39,093 nt of DNA from Escherichia phage PE3-1: the sequence record KJ748011. One strand, written 5' to 3'. A program made the translations under genes and the position numbers. Under the pieces are notes generated by a model that searched no databases, had not been told where the DNA came from, and worked only from the letters and a program-made list of their open reading frames with translations. The number at the start of each line of letters is the position of its first letter. The stretch's first letter is position 1. Shown in pieces: positions 9,755 through 39,052 of this stretch.

Positions 9755-10204
9755 ATGACGCTGAAAGAGAAACTGGAGGCTTACTCTAAGGTTTCTCCTT
9801 CGGGATGCTGGGAGTGGCAACGCTCCCGGACTAAAACTGGTTATGGTCAAATAGCTATAGGTCATCAGAAACAGGACTATTCTCACCGAGTTTCGTACAG
9901 GGAGTACAAAGGTCATATACCTGATGGATTGGTTGTTAGACATAAATGTGATAACCCTTGCTGCTGTAACCCTGAGCACCTTGAAGTTGGGACTCAGAAG
10001 GACAACATGCAGGACTGCGTGAAGCGGGGACGTCACTCGAAACCGCCAGTATTCGAAGGAGAAGCTAATCACAAGACTAAGCTGACCGAGGAAGACGTAG
10101 CGTTTATCCTGAAGTCCAAGCTGAGGCCTATAGAACTTGCTAAGATGTTTGGCGTTACTCCGCAAGCTATTAATTGGAGACGCAAGAATGGCAAGAACGA
10201 TTAG
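9755..10204 (+). CDS. HNH homing endonuclease
   Basis: 149 aa; GCWEW..GYG..HR.....G.IP.GLVVRHKCDNPCCCNPEHL..GTQKDN is a classic phage HNH signature; starts 1 nt after the SSB stop. Confidence 0.85.
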   Translation: MTLKEKLEAYSKVSPSGCWEWQRSRTKTGYGQIAIGHQKQDYSHRVSYREYKGHIPDGLVVRHKCDNPCCCNPEHLEVGTQKDNMQDCVKRGRHSKPPVFEGEANHKTKLTEEDVAFILKSKLRPIELAKMFGVTPQAINWRRKNGKND

Positions 10205-10637: not shown

Positions 10638-11107
10638 TGACTCAGAAATATAGACTTAAGACTGGATTCAACGGGTGGCCAGCAGGCACTATCGTTACGA
10701 AATGTTCGAAAGACCCTGTACCATCACCTGTAATGACTCTGGTGGAATCCTCCGAGAGGGGAATCTACAAACACGGAGCGGAAGGTTATAACACTCAGCC
10801 TGACGGTATGTGGGGAGCGTGGGTTATAAATAATCAGCTTGAGGAAATCTTAGAGGATAAACCGCAAGTCCTGCCAGCCTCAAGTGTCCCTCCTGTCACA
10901 GTTAAACGTGAAGTCCTGACCATCAACAAGATCGGTGTAGGTCAGACGTTCATCGTCCACGGTAAGCCTGACGAAGTGTACGTGAAGATTAGCAACTCTC
11001 ACGTCTTCAACCATAAGTTGCTCCAGATGCACACGACTGACGCACAGCGCTTCCAACGTCATCTGAACCTCGTAGCTGTAGAGCTGGTGGTGTACGATGG
11101 TGAGTAA
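10634..11107 (+). CDS. Hypothetical protein (157 aa) inserted between endonuclease I and lysozyme
   Basis: Clean ORF with AAAGGAG RBS and ATGA coupling to gene 3; no T7 counterpart at this position. Confidence 0.65.
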   Translation: MMTQKYRLKTGFNGWPAGTIVTKCSKDPVPSPVMTLVESSERGIYKHGAEGYNTQPDGMWGAWVINNQLEEILEDKPQVLPASSVPPVTVKREVLTINKIGVGQTFIVHGKPDEVYVKISNSHVFNHKLLQMHTTDAQRFQRHLNLVAVELVVYDGE

Positions 11108-11555
11108 GGTTCAGTTCAACCCACGGTCACGGACTGACGCTATCTTCGTTCACTGTTCGGCTACCAAGCCAGATATGGACATCGGGGTAGAGACAATCCG
11201 TATGTGGCACAAGCAGCAAGGCTGGCTGGACGTAGGCTACCACTTCGTCATCAAGCGTGATGGCACTGTGGAAGAAGGCCGCCCGGTCAATGTCGTAGGG
11301 TCACACGTTAAGGACTGGAACTCCCGGTCCGTAGGCGTCTGCCTTGTAGGTGGGATCAACGCTAATGGCAAGTTTGAAGCTAACTTCACTCCAGCCCAGA
11401 TGGACTCCCTGCGCATCAAGCTGGATGACCTGAAGGTCCTGTATCCTCAGGCAGAAATCAAAGCACACCATGACGTAGCACCTAAGGCCTGTCCAAGTTT
11501 TGACTTGCAACGCTGGTTGACTACCAACGAACTGGTCACTTCCGACCGTGGTTAA
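11097..11555 (+). CDS. 3.5: Lysozyme / N-acetylmuramoyl-L-alanine amidase (gp3.5)
   Basis: 152 aa; VQF..R..TDAIFVHCSATKP, WLDVGYHF.IKRDGTVE.GR, HH.VAPKACPSFDL.RW...NELVTSDRG match T7 lysozyme. Confidence 0.96.
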   Translation: MVSKVQFNPRSRTDAIFVHCSATKPDMDIGVETIRMWHKQQGWLDVGYHFVIKRDGTVEEGRPVNVVGSHVKDWNSRSVGVCLVGGINANGKFEANFTPAQMDSLRIKLDDLKVLYPQAEIKAHHDVAPKACPSFDLQRWLTTNELVTSDRG

Positions 11556-26178: not shown

Positions 26179-26649
26179 ATGTATATTCGCAAGGCTACGG
26201 AACCAGATGTCCACTACTTTCTGTGGCATCTTTCAGCAGATGATGTTAATGAGTGCAAAGCAAACTATGGGTCAACCGTTGGTCTCTCTGAAAGACTGCT
26301 TAAGCATTTATCCCCGTCATCTGTGGTTTTAACGAACGGTGTAGGCGAAGTGTTTGCCTATGGTGGAAACCAAGGTGATAACGTATGGTTCTTGACTTCC
26401 GGTCTTGTCTATAAGCTGAGACCTAAAGAGAAGCGAGAGTTCATAAAGCGTATCTCTGAGTACAGGGACTTAATGTTAGACCAATACGGGACCATCTGGA
26501 ACTACGTGTGGTCAGGCAATAAGTCTCACATTAAATTCTTGAAGTTGCTTGGGGCTAAGTTCCATGATGATTGGACTATCAGCCCAGTAACTGGTGAGCG
26601 TTTTCAACTATTCACTATCTCTAAGGAGGACGTATGTGTGAACCCGTAA
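26179..26649 (+). CDS. 13: gp13-position protein (internal virion/assembly protein by synteny)
   Basis: 156 aa ORF with AAGGAG RBS downstream of the promoter; assignment by position. Confidence 0.75.
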   Translation: MYIRKATEPDVHYFLWHLSADDVNECKANYGSTVGLSERLLKHLSPSSVVLTNGVGEVFAYGGNQGDNVWFLTSGLVYKLRPKEKREFIKRISEYRDLMLDQYGTIWNYVWSGNKSHIKFLKLLGAKFHDDWTISPVTGERFQLFTISKEDVCVNP

Positions 26650-27221
26650 GTATCGGCATGGGTATCATGGCTACAGCCGGGGCCACTATGTCCGCATCCC
26701 AGCAGGCCAAGGCCGAAGGTGCAGCAATTGACGCTCAGAACCGACAGGCTCAGGAAATGGTTAAGCAGATGAACTACTCTGACGCGAACCTGAAGATGCA
26801 GGAGCGAGACCTGAAGGAGCAGCAGATGGCTGAACTGACAGAGACCACACTCAACGGTATCCGCAATCAGGGTATGGTCCGAGCTGCGGTGGCTGAGTCA
26901 GGTCTGGAAGGTAACTCTATGGACAGGATTGAACGTCAGGTCGCAGGAGATACAGTCAAGGAGCGAGCAGGGATTACCGAAAGTTACAACCGCGACTATG
27001 CGGCTATCTTCGGGAACCGTATCGCCAACATTGAGAACACCAAGTCTGCTATCCGTGGTCAAGGTAAAATTATCAAGACCAGCCCACTGGCTCATGCACT
27101 TAATGTTGCTACCGCCGGGATGCAAGGCTACGCCGCTGGTAAGTCAATCTCTGGAGAGTCCAGCTCTGGTGGTTCTGCACCAATTAGTGCTGCTAAAGGC
27201 ACACCTACAGGTCATAGCTAA
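26634..27221 (+). CDS. 14: Internal virion protein gp14
   Basis: 195 aa; N-terminal MC, Ala-rich and QQAKAEG region parallel T7 gp14; synteny. Confidence 0.88.
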   Translation: MCEPVSIGMGIMATAGATMSASQQAKAEGAAIDAQNRQAQEMVKQMNYSDANLKMQERDLKEQQMAELTETTLNGIRNQGMVRAAVAESGLEGNSMDRIERQVAGDTVKERAGITESYNRDYAAIFGNRIANIENTKSAIRGQGKIIKTSPLAHALNVATAGMQGYAAGKSISGESSSGGSAPISAAKGTPTGHS

Positions 27222-27232
27222 GAGGAGGACTA

Positions 27233-29515
27233 ATGGCTAGTAATATTGAATCAGCTCTGGCTAATCGGACTATGGGTCGTGGCAGAGCGCCGGGTAAAAC
27301 TATCGCCGTCAACTATCAAGCAGCCAGCGTTCAGGCTCCAACTGGTGACTCAGGCCTGGCTCGGGCGTTAACCAACTTCGTTGAGTCTGGTACTGGACTA
27401 TACAAGCAGTTCAAGGACGATGAGAAGACCAGAGCTGACGACCGGTCTAACGAGATTATCCGTAAGCTGACACCTCAGCAAAGACGTGAGGCTATCCAGA
27501 ACGGCACATTGCTGTATCAGGATGACCCTTACGCTATGGAAGCACTTCGAGTAAAGACCGGTCGTAACGCTGCCTTTGCGGTGGATGACGAGATTAACGT
27601 TAAGATTCAGAACGGTGAGTTCCGCACACGTCAGGACATGGAAGAGTATCGCCACCAGCGACTTCAGGATGCCGCTAAGTCCTATGCTGAAGAGGCGGGC
27701 ATTAACCCTACCGATGAGTTCTTCCAGCGTGGGTTCAACGATAACATCACAGACCGCAACATCGCTATCTATGGATCTTTCAATAAGTATTTCAGCAAGC
27801 AGTCTGAAGAGACAGCAATGTTGAACACTCGTATTGAGATGAACTCGTTCCTTAACGATGGGGACCTGATGCGTTCGCCTGAGTCTGGAAAGACCTTCAT
27901 GGCCTATCTTCGGGATGGACTGACGACTGCTGCTATCCCTTCTGACCAGCGAGCACGAGAGGTAATTACCCAGACGGTCCGTGACGCAATCCAGAAGTCT
28001 GGCGGCTCAAACTTCCTACAGCAAGTACGAGGCGAGCGAATCACCCTTAACGGTGTGGACGCTACAGTCGAAGAGATTGTGGGACCTGATGTCTTCAACG
28101 CTGCTATTGTTGAGGCACAAGGAACTGAGTACAAGCTGGTGGCTAAGTATCAGGAAGACTTAGCGTTAGGCGTTCAGTCTGCGATTCTTCAGGATGACCC
28201 AACCATTGGTCTTGCCCAGATTCAGAAACTCAAGGAGCAGAACAACCTGCTTCAGTCTGGTGAAGAACTAACGCCTCAGCGTCAGATGCTTATTAATGCC
28301 GAAGCCAGCTTACTGGAAGCGGTCAAGCGTAAGTCCGCTGAACAGGCGAAGGAGAACACTAAGTTAATCCAGACCCAGAACAAGCAACTGGTCATAGACC
28401 AAGTTTATCAGCGACGTCTGGCTGGTGACAACGTGTCCACCAACTATGAGGACCTTCCGGTCTCTGAAGCTACAGGAGAGTTTAAGCGTTCAGACATGAA
28501 CAACTATGCGTCTGCCAAGCTACAGCAGATTGACCAGATGGACATCCCTGAGGCTGCTAAGGATGCTCAGAAGGTGGCATTGTTAAGAGCTGATACCAAC
28601 AATGGCCCATTCCGTAACGCCTTCCAGACTCTTACTCAGGATGCTGATGGTGAGTGGCAAGCTGCGGTCATCCGTGGACAGTACGACCCAGATAAGATGA
28701 AACGCTTCGAGTCTCTTCGTCGTGCCTACACTCAGGACCCTTCAAGTTTTGCTGCTCTGTATCCTGAGCAGGCCCAATTGTTCACGACTTTCGAGCAGAT
28801 GGACAAGATAGGTCTGGACCCTCAGACGCTGATTGAAGCTGATAAACAAGCTGCAAGTCAAAGCCGTGAGATGCGCATTGAGTCAGACAAGGCGTGGCAG
28901 GAGTTGAAGAACGACTCTCGGAATAAGGACCTTTCGCGTCTTCCAACGTCTCTGGACTCAACTGCTCGTAAGGTCTGGGACTCATGGTACTACAGGACAG
29001 GTAACGCTGACGGAGCCACTCAGCATACCCAGAAGTGGTTGAATGAAAACACCGTTACTTTCACCGATGATGGTCAGGATGGTAAGTCCATCGGCATGGT
29101 GTCCCATCATCAACTTATGGTCGGGGATGACCCTGAGTCTTGGAAGGTGGGTCGAGACATCATCGACATAGCTCGCAAGCAGCTCATTAAGGCCAACCCT
29201 TGGGTAGTGAACTCTCAGTTGTCCGTTGTTGAACAGAACGGCTCTATCTTCCTCCAAGACGCTACAGGGACTATTCGTATTCGATACGATAAAGAACTTG
29301 TAGGTAAACTCTACCGCGAACAACAGCAGAAGGCACAAGATGCCGCATACGCTCAGGCAGAACGTGACGCTAACAAGCGAGCGCGTATCGTCGGGACTAA
29401 AGCTGCTGGTGACAAACGTCGAGCTGACCAAGAGGCCAACATCGAGAAGCGCGGTGGGGTGTACAATGACGTCTCACTGGAGGGTATCGCAAACGTACTA
29501 ATTGGTAAGGAGTAA
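27233..29515 (+). CDS. 15: Internal virion (core) protein gp15
   Basis: 760 aa; size and synteny with T7 gp15. Confidence 0.9.
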   Translation: MASNIESALANRTMGRGRAPGKTIAVNYQAASVQAPTGDSGLARALTNFVESGTGLYKQFKDDEKTRADDRSNEIIRKLTPQQRREAIQNGTLLYQDDPYAMEALRVKTGRNAAFAVDDEINVKIQNGEFRTRQDMEEYRHQRLQDAAKSYAEEAGINPTDEFFQRGFNDNITDRNIAIYGSFNKYFSKQSEETAMLNTRIEMNSFLNDGDLMRSPESGKTFMAYLRDGLTTAAIPSDQRAREVITQTVRDAIQKSGGSNFLQQVRGERITLNGVDATVEEIVGPDVFNAAIVEAQGTEYKLVAKYQEDLALGVQSAILQDDPTIGLAQIQKLKEQNNLLQSGEELTPQRQMLINAEASLLEAVKRKSAEQAKENTKLIQTQNKQLVIDQVYQRRLAGDNVSTNYEDLPVSEATGEFKRSDMNNYASAKLQQIDQMDIPEAAKDAQKVALLRADTNNGPFRNAFQTLTQDADGEWQAAVIRGQYDPDKMKRFESLRRAYTQDPSSFAALYPEQAQLFTTFEQMDKIGLDPQTLIEADKQAASQSREMRIESDKAWQELKNDSRNKDLSRLPTSLDSTARKVWDSWYYRTGNADGATQHTQKWLNENTVTFTDDGQDGKSIGMVSHHQLMVGDDPESWKVGRDIIDIARKQLIKANPWVVNSQLSVVEQNGSIFLQDATGTIRIRYDKELVGKLYREQQQKAQDAAYAQAERDANKRARIVGTKAAGDKRRADQEANIEKRGGVYNDVSLEGIANVLIGKE

Positions 29516-29519
29516 CATA

Positions 29520-32500
29520 ATGGCGACTCGTGGTATTCGCAATAACAATCCGGGTAACATCCGGGTAAGTAAGGACCAATGGGAAGGAATGACTGGAGAT
29601 GATGGCGCATTCGTCACATTCGATAGTCCAGAGTCTGGCGTCCGAGCTTTAGGTAAAAACCTGCTGTCCTACGGTCGCCAAGGTTATGACTCCATCGAGA
29701 AGATTATCAACCGATGGGCACCTCCTAACGAGAACGACACTAAGGCTTATATTGACTCAGTGGTGGCTGCAACTGGTATTCCAGCTACCCAGAGTCTCGA
29801 CCTATCGGACCCTGACACCCTGTCTTCTCTGGCTCAAGCTATCAGCTTCCATGAGACAGGCTCCCGGTACGACCCTGAAGTCTATCAGAAGGGAGTCGCA
29901 CGAGCACTCAATGGCATTAGCCCAAAGACTCCACCAGTAAGCGCTAACGTATTTGACGCACTCACGGAAGGACTCAAGGCTAAACCTAAAGTAGCTCTTG
30001 GTGAGAACCTTCCGACCGCTGCTGGTCTGAACATTGAGGGTCAAGCACCTGAAGCTCCCAACGAATCGTTCGGTGAGATGTTCTATAAGTCTACTGGCGA
30101 GACCATGCAGGAACGAGAGGACCGCTCTACGTGGTTCGGTTTTGGTTCTGCTACAGAATCTGAAGTGAAGAACTCTATGGTCGGCGTGGCTATCCGCGCT
30201 GGTCAGACCGAGGACTCACTTGATGTCATTGGCGATGTGTTCAACCCGACCCGCTGGAACAACCATAAGTGGTCTCGTGAGGAGCTGGACCAGATTCGTA
30301 ACGCTGGAGTTCTTCCTCAGTATTACGGGGTCATTACTGGTGGCTCCCCTCAGAACCTGACCGAGCTTATTAACTTGGCGCTTGAGAACCAGAAGTTGGA
30401 CCAAGAGAAGGCCAAGGCCGGGATTGGTGCTCAGTTAGCTGCTGGTGTGATTGGTGCTGGTGTAGACCCGCTGACCTACGTTCCTATCGCTGGACAGGTT
30501 GGTAAAGGCGGTAAGCTGGTCAACAAGATGTTCACCGTGGCTGCTCAATCTGGAGCACTGGCTGGTGTGTCGGAGATGGCCCGTACCTCAGTGGCTGGTG
30601 GTGATGCTCATGTGGCTGAGGCTATCCTTGGCGGTGCTCTCTTCGGTGGCGGTATGACTGCTATCGCTGATGGTTTAGGCAGAGCCTTAGGTCGCAACAC
30701 TAATGAGTTTGCTGGTCCAGCTACACGTCTGGAAGCTCGTGAGACCGCTCGTAACGTTGATGGTCAGGACCTGTCTCGTCTCCCTATTCAGGAAGGTGAG
30801 CAGACCTTTAGTCATCAAGGCGTTAAGTTCGCTGACGTTCCGAACGAGCCGGGTAGTGTACGACTGGAAGATGGTTCAATCCTGATTGGTGAGAACCTTC
30901 TGAACCCTAAGACACGTCAAGTCTTTGACGAAGTGATTGAGCCTGAACGTGCCGCTGCGGGTGTGAACCTTGGTGGGCTAACTGAGATTGGCCTGAAGCT
31001 GCTTCGGTCTGAGAACCCTGAGATTCGTGGAGTCGCTGCGGACTTAGTGCGTTCACCGACTGGTATGCAGTCCGGTGCCTCAGGTAAAATCGGGACCACT
31101 GCGTCAGACGTATTCGAGAGACTTCGTGCTGTGGACCATCGGTTCTACAACGACATCGACGATGCGGTTACTGAGGCACTAAAGGACCCGTACTTCCAGA
31201 CAGCATTCTGGCGAGACTCTGGCGCATTCCGTCAGGACGTCTACCAGCGTGTGTCTATGGCTATCGAAGATGGTAGCGGAAACCTGAAGGCTGAACTGAC
31301 TCCGGGAGAACTGAAAGTCTATGACCTGCTGAAGAACCAGTTCGACGCCAAGCGTGAGATGATGGAGAACCCAGCGATGTTTGGTCGTCCAGACGCTCAG
31401 TCTATCTTTCCTGGTAGCCGCTTCAAGGGAACCTACGTCCCGCATGTGTATAGTAACCAGATGAAGGAGCTGTACATCAAGGAGCTTGGAAGTCCAGAGG
31501 CACTACAGGAGGCCATCAAGAAATCATGGTTGACCAGCTATGCGTCTCGACCTGAAGTCAAGAAACGTGTGGACGAGGCACTCTTAGAGTCTGACCCTAC
31601 GTTGACTCCAGAAGGACTTGCGGCTGCTGTCGATAAGTACGCCAACGATAAGGCTTACGGTATCTCTCACACCGAGAAGTTCGAACGCTCATCCGTAATG
31701 GAAGAGAATATCAACGGTCTGGTTGGTCTGGAGAACAACAGCTTCCTTGAGGCTCGTAACCTGTTCGATAGTGATATGTCAATCGTCCTGCCTAACGGTC
31801 AGACCTTCAGTGTCAACAACCTTCGTGAGTGGGACATGGACAAGATTGTCCCGGCCTACAACCGTCGAGTTAATGGCGATATTGCTATCATGGCTGGTAC
31901 AGGCAAAACCACGAAGGACATGAAGGACTTGGTTGAGACCATGATGAACAAGGCTGGGGATGACGGTAAGTTGAAAGGTGAAGTATCTACCTTACGTGAC
32001 ACCTTGAAGATTCTCACTGGTCGTGCTCGACGTGATGGTGCTGATGATGCAGCCTTCGCTACCGTGATGCGCACAATGACAGACCTATCGTTCTTCGCTA
32101 AGAATGCCTACATGGGTGTTCAGAACTTAACGGAGATTGGTGGTATGCTGGCTCGTGGTAACGTTCGTGCGCTGCTTCATGGAGTCCCGATGTTCCGTGA
32201 CCTAGCCTTCCGTAACAAGAAGGTAGGAGCCTCAGAGATTAAGGACCTTCACAATGTTCTCTTCGGTAAGGAACTTGATGACTCAATCCGTCCGTCTAAA
32301 CAGGATGTCATCGACCGTCTGCGGTCTTACAGTGACCTCGGTCGTGGTACGGCTACAGCTCTGGGGACTGCCAAGTATTACACTGGTGAACTTGCAGTAC
32401 GCTCTCCGTTCACTAAAGTCCTCAACGGTACGACCAACTACCTGTTAGATGCTGGACGTCAGGGATTCCTGTCTGACATCGTGGAGCATAGTCTGACTGG

Positions 32501-33407
32501 CAGTAAGCGTCGGTTCGATGACCGCTGGCTGAAGACCGCTGGTATCTCTGACGAGCAGTGGAAGGGCATTAAGTCCCTAATCCGTGAGTCAGTGACTCGT
32601 GGTCCAGACGGGAAGTACACCATCAAGGATAAGAAGGCGTTCAGTCAGGATCCAAGGGCTATGGACCTGTGGCGTATGGGTGACACCATCGCTGATGAAA
32701 CGTTACTACGACCTTATAAGCTGTCTAACATGGATGCCAAGGCTTATGGCCCTATCGCTAAGACTGTCCTTCAGTTTAAGAACTTCGTCATCAAGTCCAT
32801 CAATGGTCGAACCATGCGAACCTTCTATAACGCCACGAAGAACAACCGAGCGATGGACGCTGCACTGTCTACTGTGATGTCTATGGGTCTGTCTGGTATC
32901 TACTACATGGCTCAAGCTCACGTCAAGGCTTACGCTATGCAGGATGGTCGAGACCGTGAATACCTCAAGCAAGCTCTGGACCCGACGATGATTGGCTATG
33001 CGGCTCTGTCCCGTAGTTCACATCTGGGTGGACCACTTGGAGTCGCCAACATTCTTGGTGGTATCGCTGGGTATGAGGACACTAAGATGCTCCGTTCGTC
33101 TATCCTCCCTCGTTCACCTACAGAGAAGCCTGAACGTGCTTTCACATATGGTGCGTCTACAAGTGACCCTGTGATGAATATTGTTGGTAACTTCTTGGAG
33201 CAGGTTCCAGCTTTCGGATATGCTGCTAACGTTGGCGCTTCGGCTTACAACTTGGCTGGCTACCTAAAGGCTGATACTCGTGTCAACGAGCGTGACTACA
33301 TGACCGGGATGTATAATACGTTCCGTGAACTGGTTCCGAACGACCCAATTACCCAGAAGTTGCTGCTTGGAACGTTTGAGGAGCAAGGCATCCACATCAA
33401 GGACTAA
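29520..33407 (+). CDS. 16: Internal virion protein gp16 (ejectosome component) with a non-T7 N-terminal domain
   Basis: Central and C-terminal regions collinear with T7 gp16 (WFGFG, GVDPLTYVP, RSPTGMQSGASGK, ENPAMFG, RVNGDIAIM, GTTNYLLDA, RAMDLWR); start at ATG 29520 with AAGGAG RBS. Confidence 0.95.
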   Translation: MATRGIRNNNPGNIRVSKDQWEGMTGDDGAFVTFDSPESGVRALGKNLLSYGRQGYDSIEKIINRWAPPNENDTKAYIDSVVAATGIPATQSLDLSDPDTLSSLAQAISFHETGSRYDPEVYQKGVARALNGISPKTPPVSANVFDALTEGLKAKPKVALGENLPTAAGLNIEGQAPEAPNESFGEMFYKSTGETMQEREDRSTWFGFGSATESEVKNSMVGVAIRAGQTEDSLDVIGDVFNPTRWNNHKWSREELDQIRNAGVLPQYYGVITGGSPQNLTELINLALENQKLDQEKAKAGIGAQLAAGVIGAGVDPLTYVPIAGQVGKGGKLVNKMFTVAAQSGALAGVSEMARTSVAGGDAHVAEAILGGALFGGGMTAIADGLGRALGRNTNEFAGPATRLEARETARNVDGQDLSRLPIQEGEQTFSHQGVKFADVPNEPGSVRLEDGSILIGENLLNPKTRQVFDEVIEPERAAAGVNLGGLTEIGLKLLRSENPEIRGVAADLVRSPTGMQSGASGKIGTTASDVFERLRAVDHRFYNDIDDAVTEALKDPYFQTAFWRDSGAFRQDVYQRVSMAIEDGSGNLKAELTPGELKVYDLLKNQFDAKREMMENPAMFGRPDAQSIFPGSRFKGTYVPHVYSNQMKELYIKELGSPEALQEAIKKSWLTSYASRPEVKKRVDEALLESDPTLTPEGLAAAVDKYANDKAYGISHTEKFERSSVMEENINGLVGLENNSFLEARNLFDSDMSIVLPNGQTFSVNNLREWDMDKIVPAYNRRVNGDIAIMAGTGKTTKDMKDLVETMMNKAGDDGKLKGEVSTLRDTLKILTGRARRDGADDAAFATVMRTMTDLSFFAKNAYMGVQNLTEIGGMLARGNVRALLHGVPMFRDLAFRNKKVGASEIKDLHNVLFGKELDDSIRPSKQDVIDRLRSYSDLGRGTATALGTAKYYTGELAVRSPFTKVLNGTTNYLLDAGRQGFLSDIVEHSLTGSKRRFDDRWLKTAGISDEQWKGIKSLIRESVTRGPDGKYTIKDKKAFSQDPRAMDLWRMGDTIADETLLRPYKLSNMDAKAYGPIAKTVLQFKNFVIKSINGRTMRTFYNATKNNRAMDAALSTVMSMGLSGIYYMAQAHVKAYAMQDGRDREYLKQALDPTMIGYAALSRSSHLGGPLGVANILGGIAGYEDTKMLRSSILPRSPTEKPERAFTYGASTSDPVMNIVGNFLEQVPAFGYAANVGASAYNLAGYLKADTRVNERDYMTGMYNTFRELVPNDPITQKLLLGTFEEQGIHIKD

Positions 33408-33425
33408 ACTATCACTATAGGAAAC
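33404..33425 (+). promoter_or_regulatory. Phage RNAP promoter CTAAACTATCACTATAGGAAAC (phi17 position)
   Basis: Consensus match upstream of the tail fiber gene. Confidence 0.85.
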
Positions 33426-33472
33426 GGGAGGCGCTACCATAGGTCTCCCTTTAATTCATAACAGGAGGCATA

Positions 33473-35659
33473 ATGTCCACTATTACACAATTCCCTTCAG
33501 GAAACACTCAGTACAGGATTGAGTTCGACTACCTAGCCAGAACGTTCGTTGTTGTTACGCTGGTGAATAGCTCTAACCCTGCCATGAACCGTGTACTGGA
33601 AGTTGGTCGAGATTACCGATTCCTTAATCCAACGATGATTGAGATGTTGATTGACCAATCAGGTTTCGACATCGTTCGTATTCACCGTCAGACTGGAACT
33701 GACTTAGTGGTAGACTTCAGGAATGGCTCAGTGTTGACAGCTAGTGACCTGACCAATGCAGAGCTTCAGGCTATCCATATTGCAGAAGAAGGTCGAGACC
33801 AAACGGTTGACTTAGCTAAGGAATATGCCGATGCTGCTAGTAGCTCTGCTGGCAGCGCTAAGGATAGCGAGGACGAAGCACGACGAATCGCTGAGAATAT
33901 CAAGGCATCTGGTCTAATTGGCCATATTACCCGTCGCTCCTTCGAGAAAGGCTTCAACGTTACAACATGGAACGAGGTCCTGCTATGGGAAGAGGATGGT
34001 GATTATTACCGCTGGGATGGTACGCTTCCAAAGAACGTTCCTGCTGGTTCAACTCCTGAAACTTCCGGTGGTATTGGGCTGGGCGCGTGGGTTAGTGTTG
34101 GGGACGCGTCATTAAGAAGCGCACTTAAAACAAATAATGGTTCCAATTTAGTTGGGACTAATAACGGATTAACTGTTCAACAACGATTAAATTTAGACCG
34201 CGCAGACATCTCTAATTACGGGTATGTTTATGGTAGTGGTGCTGATGGTAAAGACGCGGTGCTATCAGCCGTATCGGACCACGGGTACGCACACGTAACT
34301 GGCGCCACGACATTATCGAGTTTTGATTGGCCTGAAGGAGCCAGATTGACAGGAAAGGCCACCATCACATACACAAGGCTACCAAACGTTCCATGTGAAC
34401 TTGATAGTGAAATACCTGTAGACCATTCACTGATGAAGGCTGTATACGTTCATCGCGTGTTTGATATTTGTGACATGTTACAACTAAAAACCGCCGGGTT
34501 TAATACGCTAATTCACTACGGTCAAGCGTGGACAAACGGTGGGAATATGGAAAAGGCCTGTAACGCCGCAGAAGCTGTTGGGCTTAAACTTATACTTGGT
34601 GGGCCAGTATACGGGCAGACAAACACTCCGGCTACAGACCTTGACAGCAGAGATTGCGTTATCGGCTATTACTTGTTTGATGAACCGCAAAATAATTCAG
34701 TAAGCAGAGCAGTGCAAGAAACGCGCATCTCGGCATTTAAATCATTCACAGAAAAATCATTATGCATAGCTGAAAATGGTATTTTTGGGTTTGACTCAAA
34801 TACACACCCGAACGGTTATGGTGGTACTGGATATGATATTATATTTGCAGACGCGTATTACCATGATGACTGGGATGATGCCCGGAATAAGCGACAGGCT
34901 GTTATTGGGTGGGGGGAACTGAAGTATAAATGTCCCACATCAAGAATTGTACCTTGTGTTGGATTGTTTACAACTGACGCAAATGGTGGTTCTGACAACT
35001 TCAAAAACAAAGCAAAACAGATAGCTTTCGCTAAGAAGTTTTTTAACATGGGTGACGGTGAGTATGCGGCGTTCTCGTGGGAGACACAACTCATCGTAAA
35101 CACACACAACACATTGACCACCGATACTGATTTGTATGCTTTAGGGAAAGAATTAAATTCTGCACCTAGACAAAAACCTTATGACATAGATGTGTATGCA
35201 TTTTACCCGGATAGAATGGGTGGAGCTATGCAGTTGTACAATGACAAGTACAGTTCTGCCGATGTCACACCATTCCAGACTATCAATACCGGGAGCGTAC
35301 AAGGTGAGCGTAACACTACATTTAAACAGGGTGGTATTGCGGCAAGAAACACTGGCGGTGTGTTTGCTACGAGGATGAAGAACCACGGCTACATAGCCTT
35401 TGAGCTGTATTATTTTAATGGGGCAGATTCTGCGAATACTTCAGCAGCAATAACAACATGTACTGATGACTTCTACACTAATACAGAGCAATTAACATTC
35501 ACGTACAATAATTCAAATAACGCGTGGATTAAGTCTGTTGAAACAGCTCCCAATTTGGGTGTTGGTATAAAGCTTGTTCCTTCGGCGTCGTACAACATGC
35601 GGTGGAAGATGGTGCGCGGAGGGATTATCGATTGCTCGTGGAGGGGAGAGGAGATATAG
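33473..35659 (+). CDS. 17: Tail fiber / receptor-binding protein: T7 gp17-like N-terminal anchor fused to a distinct C-terminal domain (possible glycan depolymerase)
   Basis: First ~150 aa parallel T7 gp17 (FDYLARTFVVVTLV, RDYRF, DFRNGSVLTASDLTNAELQAIHIAEEGRD); the remaining ~570 aa have no T7 similarity and sit in visibly AT-richer DNA. Confidence 0.9.
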   Translation: MSTITQFPSGNTQYRIEFDYLARTFVVVTLVNSSNPAMNRVLEVGRDYRFLNPTMIEMLIDQSGFDIVRIHRQTGTDLVVDFRNGSVLTASDLTNAELQAIHIAEEGRDQTVDLAKEYADAASSSAGSAKDSEDEARRIAENIKASGLIGHITRRSFEKGFNVTTWNEVLLWEEDGDYYRWDGTLPKNVPAGSTPETSGGIGLGAWVSVGDASLRSALKTNNGSNLVGTNNGLTVQQRLNLDRADISNYGYVYGSGADGKDAVLSAVSDHGYAHVTGATTLSSFDWPEGARLTGKATITYTRLPNVPCELDSEIPVDHSLMKAVYVHRVFDICDMLQLKTAGFNTLIHYGQAWTNGGNMEKACNAAEAVGLKLILGGPVYGQTNTPATDLDSRDCVIGYYLFDEPQNNSVSRAVQETRISAFKSFTEKSLCIAENGIFGFDSNTHPNGYGGTGYDIIFADAYYHDDWDDARNKRQAVIGWGELKYKCPTSRIVPCVGLFTTDANGGSDNFKNKAKQIAFAKKFFNMGDGEYAAFSWETQLIVNTHNTLTTDTDLYALGKELNSAPRQKPYDIDVYAFYPDRMGGAMQLYNDKYSSADVTPFQTINTGSVQGERNTTFKQGGIAARNTGGVFATRMKNHGYIAFELYYFNGADSANTSAAITTCTDDFYTNTEQLTFTYNNSNNAWIKSVETAPNLGVGIKLVPSASYNMRWKMVRGGIIDCSWRGEEI

Positions 35660-35730: not shown

Positions 35731-35925
35731 ATGATTGAGTTAGACTTCAAGAATGAGGTCCTTAAAGCCTCTCCTATAGTCGGGACCGCTGCGGCTGATG
35801 GTGCCAGTCGGTTCTTCTTCGGACTTACACTGAACGAATGGTTCTACGTTGCAGCTATCGCGTACACCGTTGTCCAGATTGGTGTGCTAGTCTACAAAAC
35901 GATTAAAGGAGGTGGTAAAACATGA
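35731..35925 (+). CDS. 17.5: Class II holin (gp17.5)
   Basis: 64 aa; LDF.NE..KA.PIVGT...D...R.FFGL.LNEWFYVAAIAYTVVQIG nearly identical in pattern to T7 holin. Confidence 0.93.
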   Translation: MIELDFKNEVLKASPIVGTAAADGASRFFFGLTLNEWFYVAAIAYTVVQIGVLVYKTIKGGGKT

Positions 35926-36286: not shown

Positions 36287-36736
36287 ATGCTCGAATTTTT
36301 AAAGAGAGCGGCTCCGTGGTTACTTGCAGCAGTGATGTTTGCTGGTGGCTACCACACCGCTAACAATAAGTGGGAGGCTAAGGTCAATGCAGAATACACC
36401 TCGAATCTTAAGGCATCGGAAGATACAAGGCTTGCTGTCCAAGCTGAAGTCAACAAAGTGTCCAAACGGTTTCAGGACGAAATGTCCTCGCTGGAAGGCA
36501 GCACTGATAGGATTATTGCTGACCTTCAGTCTGACAATAAGCGGCTGCGCATCCGAGTCAAACCTACGAGTGGAGCCACGCAAAGTGACGGTCGATGCAT
36601 CGTTGATGGTTACGCCGAACTTGACGAACGAGATGCTAAACGTCTTATCGCCATCGGAGTGAAAGGAGACAAGTGGATTAAGGCCCTTCAGGACACTGTG
36701 AGAGCCTTGCAGCAAGATAAGGAGGTGACGCATTGA
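36287..36736 (+). CDS. 18.5: Rz-like i-spanin (gp18.5)
   Basis: 149 aa; MLEFL, N-terminal TM segment, [42 protein letters not shown] match T7 gp18.5. Confidence 0.93.
36387..36662 (+). CDS. 18.7: Rz1-like o-spanin lipoprotein embedded in the +1 frame of Rz (gp18.7)
   Basis: Lipobox LTISGC after a hydrophobic stretch, Pro-containing short mature region; ATG 36387 is the only in-frame ATG upstream of the lipobox, about 100 nt into Rz; start uncertain. Confidence 0.6.
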   Translation: MQNTPRILRHRKIQGLLSKLKSTKCPNGFRTKCPRWKAALIGLLLTFSLTISGCASESNLRVEPRKVTVDASLMVTPNLTNEMLNVLSPSE

Positions 36737-38509: not shown

Positions 38510-39052
38510 ATGAGTAAACAGAAGGCCATCGACAGGGTGGCCCTCTTTAATCACTATGCTTATGTAGATGGTGAGTTGGTGTGTAGGAAACCTTATAAAG
38601 GATCTCGCAAGAAGCCCGGTGAGGTAATGGGACATTCAGTTCATCCGTCTGGGTACGCAATCGTGAAGGTTCTTGGCAGTCGGTATAGACGTGCCAGAAT
38701 CATCTACAGCCTAGTCGTTGGTCGAATACCTTCTGGCATGATGGTTGACCATATCAATGGTGATAGACTTGATGACAGGCCGGATAACTACAGGTTAGTA
38801 ACAGCATTAGAGAACCGATGGAACTCAGGAGGTGGCGATACTAATGGTCTACCCAAAGGTATCAGCTTTTTCAAGCCTACCGGAAAGTATCGCGCTCAGT
38901 TGCGCCTAAAAGGTAAGTGCTTCACGAAGACCTCAGATTCCATAGAGGAACTAGAGGTGTGGCTTGATGCTTTACGCACTGAGAAGCACAAGGAATACGC
39001 AGTAAACCGACGGTCCCCTAAGCGTGATAGGACCCATAGAAACCACAAGTAA
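38510..39052 (+). CDS. HNH homing endonuclease with AP2-type DNA-binding domain (second HNH-AP2 copy)
   Basis: 180 aa; GMMVDHINGDRLDDRPDNYRLVTALEN plus AP2-like GKYRAQLRLKGKCFTKTSDSIEELEVWLDALR; strong GGAGGAGG RBS. Confidence 0.88.
   Translation: MSKQKAIDRVALFNHYAYVDGELVCRKPYKGSRKKPGEVMGHSVHPSGYAIVKVLGSRYRRARIIYSLVVGRIPSGMMVDHINGDRLDDRPDNYRLVTALENRWNSGGGDTNGLPKGISFFKPTGKYRAQLRLKGKCFTKTSDSIEELEVWLDALRTEKHKEYAVNRRSPKRDRTHRNHK

Follow-up and report, generated by a model that had tools for sequence, protein, structure and literature searches.

The internal virion protein gp16 of Escherichia phage PE3-1 carries, in the place where gp16 of T7 has its SLT lytic transglycosylase domain (T7 residues 15-127), an N-terminal domain of a different family, namely that of the endolysin of Hafnia phage Enc34 (PHA02564). 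Judging by its homologues and predicted fold, this domain, which makes up residues 1-131 of the K1F-type gp16, most likely has muralytic activity, and we consider it highly probable that it serves as a glycosidase head, most likely a hydrolase, which opens the murein at genome ejection. The window analysed here is the whole of record KJ748011 (39,093 bases) and is a complete T7-like genome of the Kayfunavirus (K1F-like) type, with genes 13-14-15-16-17 in the order expected of a T7-like phage (Table 1). The gene 16 product matches PHROG 342 over its full length (E = 0). ATG 29520 was taken as its start, TTG 29502 being merely the earliest in-frame start of the open reading frame, and the Shine-Dalgarno sequence stands 5' of the gp15 stop codon TAA (29513-29515). 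Genes 13, 14 and 15, immediately 5' of gene 16, encode the partner internal virion or ejection proteins; on the 3' side there are gene 17, for the tail fibre/spike, and genes for a holin, for the small subunit of the terminase and for a spanin. Over bases 29520-30119 the identity is 100% with Escherichia phage JSS1, also a Kayfunavirus, and 95-99% with over 120 further K1F-like phages; the first 200 residues of gp16 are 97% identical to those of phage K1F gp16. A composition profile over 27000-33500 gave a GC content of 0.50-0.52 at the N-terminal domain versus 0.49-0.56 in the flanks, with neither GC nor skew changing abruptly there; a recent domain transfer is thus not indicated, and the lack of a compositional trace marks the exchange as old.

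Table 1. Coordinates of gene 16, its parts and other genes referred to in the text (positions in the 39,093-base window).
Feature	Position	Strand	Basis or remark
Gene 3.5 homologue, N-acetylmuramoyl-L-alanine amidase	11097-11555	+	PHROG 822, E = 6e-79; Pfam Amidase_2, E = 2.4e-15
Gene 13	26179-26649	+	PHROG 308, 'internal virion protein'
Gene 14	26634-27221	+	PHROG 805, 'internal virion protein'
Gene 15	27233-29515	+	PHROG 1339, 'internal virion protein'
Gene 16 Shine-Dalgarno AAGGAG	29507-29512	+	7 nt 5' of ATG 29520; read from sequence
Gene 16 homologue, internal core / ejectosome protein, 1295 aa	29520-33407 (with stop)	+	ORF list; PHROG 342
Enc34-type (PHA02564) peptidoglycan glycosidase domain (predicted activity), residues 1-131	29520-29912	+	
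Codon TGG, W66	29715-29717	+	aligns with Enc34 Trp79, substrate-positioning aromatic residue
Codon TAT, Y77	29748-29750	+	aligns with Enc34 Tyr95
Codon GAG, E112	29853-29855	+	aligns with Enc34 Glu131, proposed catalytic glutamate
Flexible linker, residues 132-200, starting GISPK	29913-30119	+	pLDDT drop; start of BLASTP alignment with T7
Conserved gp16 body	30120-33404	+	53% identity to T7 gp16 (PDB 7eyb, 7k5c, 6yt5)
Holin	35731-35925		
Rz-like spanin	36287-36736		

Scans of the whole gp16 and of residues 1-200 with Pfam-A and NCBIfam returned no match, and the domain was therefore identified by sequence search against the PDB, by PHROGs and by comparison of folds. [quoted passage not shown] An AlphaFold2 model of residues 1-200, built from an alignment of 118 homologues, showed the compact all-helical fold typical of the Enc34-type domain, with block-mean pLDDT values of 85 for residues 1-10, 95-98 for residues 11-130 and 48-69 past residue 131. 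The top Foldseek match of this model in the PDB was again 7q47 (E = 9e-10, TM 0.72 on target), and besides this entry and the near-identical 9VVP chain described below nothing in the PDB scored below E = 0.4. The remainder of the protein is of the T7 type. A single BLASTP alignment joins residues 125-1295 to T7 gp16 residues 152-1315 collinearly and with 53% identity, which bears out the statement of the initial annotation that the rest of the protein follows T7 gp16, and the T7 gp16 chains in the PDB (7eyb, 7k5c, 6yt5) are matched by phmmer at residues 125-1294 only. The body we take to be the inner-membrane/cytoplasmic part of the ejectosome, as in T7. The linker of residues 132-200 is already homologous to T7 gp16 residues ~159-222, which places the exchange junction at its 5' end, at GI(S/T)PK, where BLASTP alignment with T7 begins (residue 125-132) and at or beyond which all of the sampled gp16 proteins of the SLT type start to align (residue 123-132 or later). 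The extent of about 190 residues first given for the foreign region has to be shortened accordingly: its globular part reaches residue ~131 (position 29912), and residues 132-194 belong to the flexible linker which is collinear with T7. The peptide quoted in that annotation corresponds to gp16 residues 5-74.

The residues that form the catalytic signature common to GH73 and GH23 enzymes in Enc34, i.e., Glu131, Tyr95 and Trp79 (PMC8943055), have their counterparts in E112, Y77 and W66 of gp16, the pairs having been counted through the phmmer alignment against the numbering of that publication, from which the PDB chain is offset by one residue. E112 sits in the motif (H/Q)E(N/T)G; both it and Y77 are invariant in the 118 homologues and also in an 11-sequence alignment, and W66 is conserved in at least 90% of the 118. 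The Enc34 domain lyses outer-membrane-permeabilised cells of E. coli, P. aeruginosa and Hafnia, and muralytic activity on Gram-negative peptidoglycan has been shown for the Enc34 ORF39deltaC protein only (PMC8943055). From the nearest fold, that of GH73, the authors of the same study infer an N-acetylglucosaminidase and not a lytic transglycosylase (PMC8943055); for the related M4Lys, glucosaminidase and endopeptidase products have been reported. The activity of the domain in PE3-1 gp16, its bond specificity and its action at entry are predicted here from sequence and by analogy with these enzymes and with T7; on this footing the chemistry would probably be hydrolysis, as opposed to the lytic transglycosylation of T7.

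In T7, gp16 is ejected together with gp14 and gp15, with which it forms a trans-envelope conduit, and its N-terminal enzyme opens the murein locally (Moak & Molineux 2000; cryo-EM structures 7EYB and 7K5C). The corresponding sequence of events in PE3-1 would start from a gp16 in which the Enc34-type domain (residues 1-131) is joined by the flexible linker to a T7-type body. This protein would be carried in the capsid's internal core and would leave it along with gp14 and gp15 as infection begins; the three would assemble the trans-envelope DNA conduit, and local cleavage of glycan strands by the N-terminal domain would give the conduit a passage through the murein layer. It would thereby do the same job as the SLT domain of T7 with a different, unrelated-looking module, most likely a hydrolase. 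As to the location of the protein, the cryo-EM structure 9VVP, 'Core proteins of the bacteriophage E1004', contains as chain 9vvp_L the 1295-aa Gp29, with ~99% identity to it, and the gp16 homologues of CR8 and SH3/SH4 have been detected in virions by mass spectrometry; by near-identity with the former and homology to the latter, PE3-1 gp16 is expected to be a packaged protein of the capsid core. It should be noted that 1106 of the 1295 residues are modelled in the 9VVP chain and that the enzymatic domain may be unresolved in this virion structure.

The domain could instead be an inactive remnant which merely binds peptidoglycan or is a structural element of the core or ejectosome. This reading, which we hold to be improbable, draws on Vibrio phage VP4, whose 1124-aa gp16 lacks an enzyme domain at its N-terminus altogether and functions nonetheless, and on the replacement of W66 by Tyr in the gp16 proteins of Morganella and Providencia phages, where the position stays aromatic. 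The proposed catalytic Glu and the Tyr, however, do not vary among the 118 homologues or in any of the four gp16 lineages examined, and the domain of Kayfunavirus is 65% identical to that of Caroctavirus (CR8) and 48% identical to that of Minipunavirus (MP2), values similar to those of the gp16 body. The invariance of these residues together with a level of identity comparable to that of the body therefore points to an active site that is intact and under purifying selection. The T7 transglycosylase itself is reportedly required under some growth conditions only, in work ascribed to Moak & Molineux from 2000. Mutants of T7 in E37 of gp16 are reported to be delayed at 20 °C and in stationary-phase cells. 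By analogy with T7 and with VP4, which lacks such a head, the N-terminal domain of PE3-1 gp16 may be conditionally dispensable as well.

A role late in infection, in which unassembled gp16 would serve as a second endolysin and the domain would act mainly at lysis and not at entry, appears very improbable. The closest characterised relatives of the domain, ORF39 of Enc34 (PDB 7Q47; Cernooka et al. 2022) and M4Lys of Salmonella phage BSPM4, are indeed true endolysins: both are lysis-cassette proteins of ~220 aa which act from inside at lysis. They reach the periplasm, however, by means of a C-terminal two-helix membrane domain, and gp16 has no such anchor; instead the domain forms the N-terminus of a packaged 1295-aa ejection protein, fused to a core protein part of 1160 residues, from where it would act from outside at entry. 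It takes precisely the place that the entry-associated enzyme has in T7 gp16, and with its amidase, holin and spanin the genome has all the lysis genes of a T7-type phage, for which reason the N-terminal domain was also rejected as a candidate for the endolysin of this phage. With a gp16 body following the domain and the gene located between genes 15 and 17, the whole-protein architecture is not that of an Enc34-type endolysin, and gp16 is a member of the Enc34-type domain family and not of the Enc34 endolysin class.

That the N-terminus is a highly diverged SLT/GH23 lytic transglycosylase, as the labels 'peptidoglycan lytic exotransglycosylase' and 'peptidoglycan transglycosylase' on K1F-type gp16 in many GenBank records imply, is hardly credible and is largely refuted at the level of the family: whereas Pfam finds SLT (PF01464) at residues 15-127 of T7 gp16 (E = 1.7e-31) and in eight other gp16 proteins (E = 1e-19 to 1e-30), there is no match to it in PE3-1 gp16 at E <= 1, BLASTP of the two N-termini alone gave no significant alignment (best E = 1.3), and profile-profile comparison of the first ~131 residues with the T7 SLT domain yielded an hhalign probability of 1.6%. 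The domain shows neither profile or fold similarity to SLT/GH23 nor the early catalytic Glu-Ser motif. The initial annotation had described the N-terminus as lacking resemblance to the T7 transglycosylase, and these three comparisons confirm it; its further proposal of a domain swap to a different cell-wall-acting module gains support from the Enc34 homology, the modelled fold and the catalytic residues, and the fold prediction and profile search which it had called for gave an Enc34-type fold and not a divergent transglycosylase. The 'lytic transglycosylase' label on K1F-type gp16 has apparently been copied from T7. The MP2 paper asserts an SLT motif; Pfam finds none in MP2 gp16. The RefSeq and PHROG name 'internal virion protein with endolysin domain' covers both the T7-type and the K1F-type proteins without telling them apart.

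The distribution of the two types of enzyme head was addressed by tblastn searches with the whole protein, which found gp16 homologues in 1284 phage records. About 225 of these fall in bands of at least 60% identity, comprising Kayfunavirus, the Cronobacter phages Dev2/GW1, Enterobacter phage EcpYZU01, the Shigella SFP phages and Citrobacter phage CR8, and those sampled align from residue 1-17 onwards; K1F and these related records have the Enc34-type domain on gp16 too. Sampled records below 55% identity (Klebsiella KP32-like, T7, T3/BA14-like, Yersinia, Pectobacterium, Pseudomonas and Vibrio phages) align from residue 123 or later, with the exception of Morganella phage MP2, which aligns from residue 17. 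The presence of SLT was confirmed by Pfam in KP32, BA14, WW2, Eino, P1723, KNP and Delftia phage IME-DE1, while the same scan found no SLT in MP2, Providencia phage PSTRCR_128 or Vibrio phage VP4. The gp16 proteins of MP2 and PSTRCR_128 carry an Enc34-type domain with 48% and 43% identity, respectively, to that of PE3-1, and this MP2-type variant was found only in Morganella and Providencia phages. A neighbour-joining tree was computed from the gp16 bodies of 13 taxa (990 ungapped columns), with 500 bootstrap replicates scored as unrooted bipartitions. In it the two lineages with the Enc34-type domain grouped together in 0.6% of replicates; the MP2 lineage instead grouped with the SLT-type T7/KP32/BA14 clade (79%), and all of the enterobacterial lineages grouped together (97%). 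Since the two Enc34-type lineages do not group in the body tree and the outgroups carry SLT, at least two exchange events are indicated among enterobacterial T7-like phages, be they two gains or a gain and a reversion, a conclusion which has moderate support from one tree method and 13 taxa; recombination within the gp16 body is a possible alternative influence on the tree. Among cultured phages the nearest relatives of the MP2-type domain are the Kayfunavirus gp16 domains. On the K1F side many metagenomic proteins outrank the MP2 domain, in a set which was chosen by similarity to K1F and whose best member (P0001) is a truncated gp16.

The exchange of SLT for an Enc34-type hydrolase on gp16 could be adaptive to the host rather than neutral, although we regard this as doubtful. 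Lytic transglycosylases need a free C6-OH on MurNAc and are blocked by O-acetylated peptidoglycan, which would not block a hydrolase of the glucosaminidase type; Morganella and Providencia belong to those Gram-negatives whose murein is O-acetylated. The confinement of the second lineage with an Enc34-type domain to phages of these two genera touches on this question. If the exchange were host-adaptive, the enzyme head of the ejectosome would be a swappable determinant of host range, and overlooked types of enzyme would be present among the 78 of 205 Autographivirales genomes for which no lysozyme or transglycosylase has been identified.

When compared with known systems, the nearest counterpart of PE3-1 gp16 is T7 gp16 itself (internal virion protein D, 'peptidoglycan transglycosylase gp16'; PDB 7EYB, 7K5C, 6YT5), which has the same gene position and belongs to the same length class (1318 aa versus 1295 aa here). 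Both proteins bear an N-terminal murein-cleaving module on the same GI(S/T)PK linker, the activity being predicted in the present case, and they differ in the module, which is SLT (PF01464, with the invariant Glu37-Ser38) in T7 and of the Enc34 type here. Enc34-type domains in other virions, presumably there for penetration of the cell wall at entry, are those of P5 of corticovirus PM2, GP11 of vibriophage NO16 and the proteins of PHROGs 992, 2276 and 7182, but the carrier proteins and architectures are unrelated to gp16 (membrane-containing tailless phages, siphovirus tape measures). The principle of an exchangeable peptidoglycan hydrolase module in a podovirus ejectosome is met again in gp42 of the phiKMV-like Ar-KM and in the internal proteins of SP6/K1-5; in these the domains are T4-lysozyme-like and are located on a gp15-like protein or elsewhere, whereas in PE3-1 the position is that of T7 and only the enzyme family differs. 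This plasticity of hydrolase modules in Autographivirales ejectosomes has been documented (bioRxiv 10.64898/2026.05.18.726046). In a recent survey only 127 of 205 Autographivirales genomes had a lysozyme or transglycosylase domain that could be identified, and the Enc34-type domain may be among those that the survey missed.

For the domain family at large, a profile search of 1.84 billion cluster representatives retrieved 18,650 members at E <= 1e-3, of which 13,511 reached E <= 1e-10. It includes stand-alone proteins of ~135-230 aa, some of which have a C-terminal membrane segment like that of Enc34 (P0004), as well as large proteins of up to 1421 aa in which the domain is N-terminal, internal or C-terminal; the 1421-aa protein (P0219) has an N-terminal copy and one of 1259 aa (P0122) has two copies. 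The domain stretch is also matched by PHROGs 873, 992 (head protein), 2276 (tape measure) and 7182 (tail injection transglycosylase), and the virion lysins P5 of corticoviruses and GP11 of NO16 have the same fold and are related to it. Because its carriers comprise stand-alone, head, tape-measure and tail-injection proteins together with P5 and GP11, the Enc34-type module is a common building block of endolysins and virion-associated lysins.

The domain family, its structure and its activity (published in 2022) are already known, as are exchangeable hydrolase modules on podovirus ejection proteins. In our search of the literature we found no explicit statement that K1F-type gp16 lacks SLT or carries an Enc34-type domain. 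The gp16 case is thus a real but fairly ordinary exchange of modules, in which a known domain family takes a known enzyme-head role, and it leaves the general picture unchanged, the hydrolase modules of podovirus ejection proteins having already been held to be exchangeable. With it, the T7-type ejectosome does join the systems that carry an Enc34-type domain, a family of 18,650 clusters at 50% identity without a Pfam-A model. It also calls for a correction of the annotation of more than 200 K1F-like, Dev2-like, CR8-like and MmP1-like phages, in which gp16 is labelled 'lytic transglycosylase' and has an enzyme head from another family, probably one of hydrolases. Therapy-oriented work makes use of K1F-like phages, and the domain of 131 residues, taken by itself, is a candidate muralytic module against Gram-negatives. 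Finally, gp16 of T7 and gp16 of K1F constitute a natural homologous pair for probing the part that the enzyme head plays in genome entry.

The labels under which Enc34-type gp16 proteins are deposited in the databases are inconsistent and often wrong. A comparison of these labels, which took in Escherichia phage JSS1 (KX689784.2, fetched as L003), Providencia phage PSTRCR_128 (L005), many further gp16 records and the paper describing Morganella phage MP2 (PMC5384007), found among them "endo-type membrane-bound chitopentaose", "peptidoglycan lytic exotransglycosylase" and "membrane-bound lytic murein transglycosylase F". The gp16 of MP2 was said to contain an SLT motif (PMC5384007); contrary to that report, SLT was not found in this protein by Pfam. 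Doubts of another kind concern two T7-like genomes of enterobacterial type, MT350292.1 (H42, "Enterococcus phage EFA-1", listed host Enterococcus faecalis; gp16 N-domain of K1F type at 94% identity) and PP226940.1 (H157, "Morganella phage phiA020", stated host Aeromonas hydrophila). The organism or host labels of both deposits are implausible, and contamination or mislabelling is likely.

Three further ORFs of the window are listed in the table together with two gp16 homologues of other T7-like phages. Both HNH ORFs are likely to be inserted homing endonucleases. In gp17 the T7 tail-fibre N-terminal adaptor occupies residues 10-120 and a Tail_spike_N domain residues 155-211; past residue ~211 there was no Pfam match, and in the best 25 of 38 families the PHROG matches stop by about residue 300. 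What is left of gp17 towards the C-terminus may represent a domain not yet characterised, for receptor binding or as a depolymerase. The isolation host of JSS1, the phage matching the window, is E. coli O153.

Coordinates of window ORFs and of gp16 homologues in other T7-like phages
Feature	Source	Coordinates	Strand	Length (aa)	Remarks
HNH endonuclease ORF	window	9755-10204	+	149	PHROGs 1872/59; near gene 3 region
HNH endonuclease ORF	window	38510-39052	+	180	PHROG 99; after large terminase gene
gp17	window	33473-35659	+	728	
gp16 homologue	Vibrio phage VP4, DQ029335.1	L008:1102-4476		1124	
gp16	Pectobacterium phage PP74, KY084243.1	L014:566-5074		1502	annotated length

The gp16 of VP4 has no N-terminal enzyme domain; its first 250 aa gave no Pfam match at all, and it resembles the window gp16 only from window residue 180 onward. 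The murein-cutting head of gp16 is therefore absent altogether in some T7-like phages. The gp16 of PP74 was matched by tblastn in two pieces, which together with its annotated length implies a protein that would otherwise be BA14-like but for an insertion of ~190 aa; an intein is one candidate for the additional stretch, an acquired domain another.

Profile searching recovered 18,650 cluster representatives of the Enc34-type domain family at E <= 1e-3, and no Pfam-A or NCBIfam model reported this family even at E <= 1. Among the metagenomic proteins P0121 (762 aa), in which five stretches match the profile and four NNPGN motifs are visible, is composed of several diverged tandem copies, and the tape-measure-like P0122 (1259 aa) carries two. 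P0219 (1421 aa, high-GC) has a single copy at the N-terminus with a long protein behind it, an architecture like that of gp16. Other podoviruses gave partial matches to the domain in proteins annotated as structural or internal, the "structural protein" of Proteus phage RS51pmB and the "putative internal protein B" of Xanthomonas phage PBR31 (H81/H62 phage records). The Enc34-type module may also be carried by ejection proteins besides gp16.
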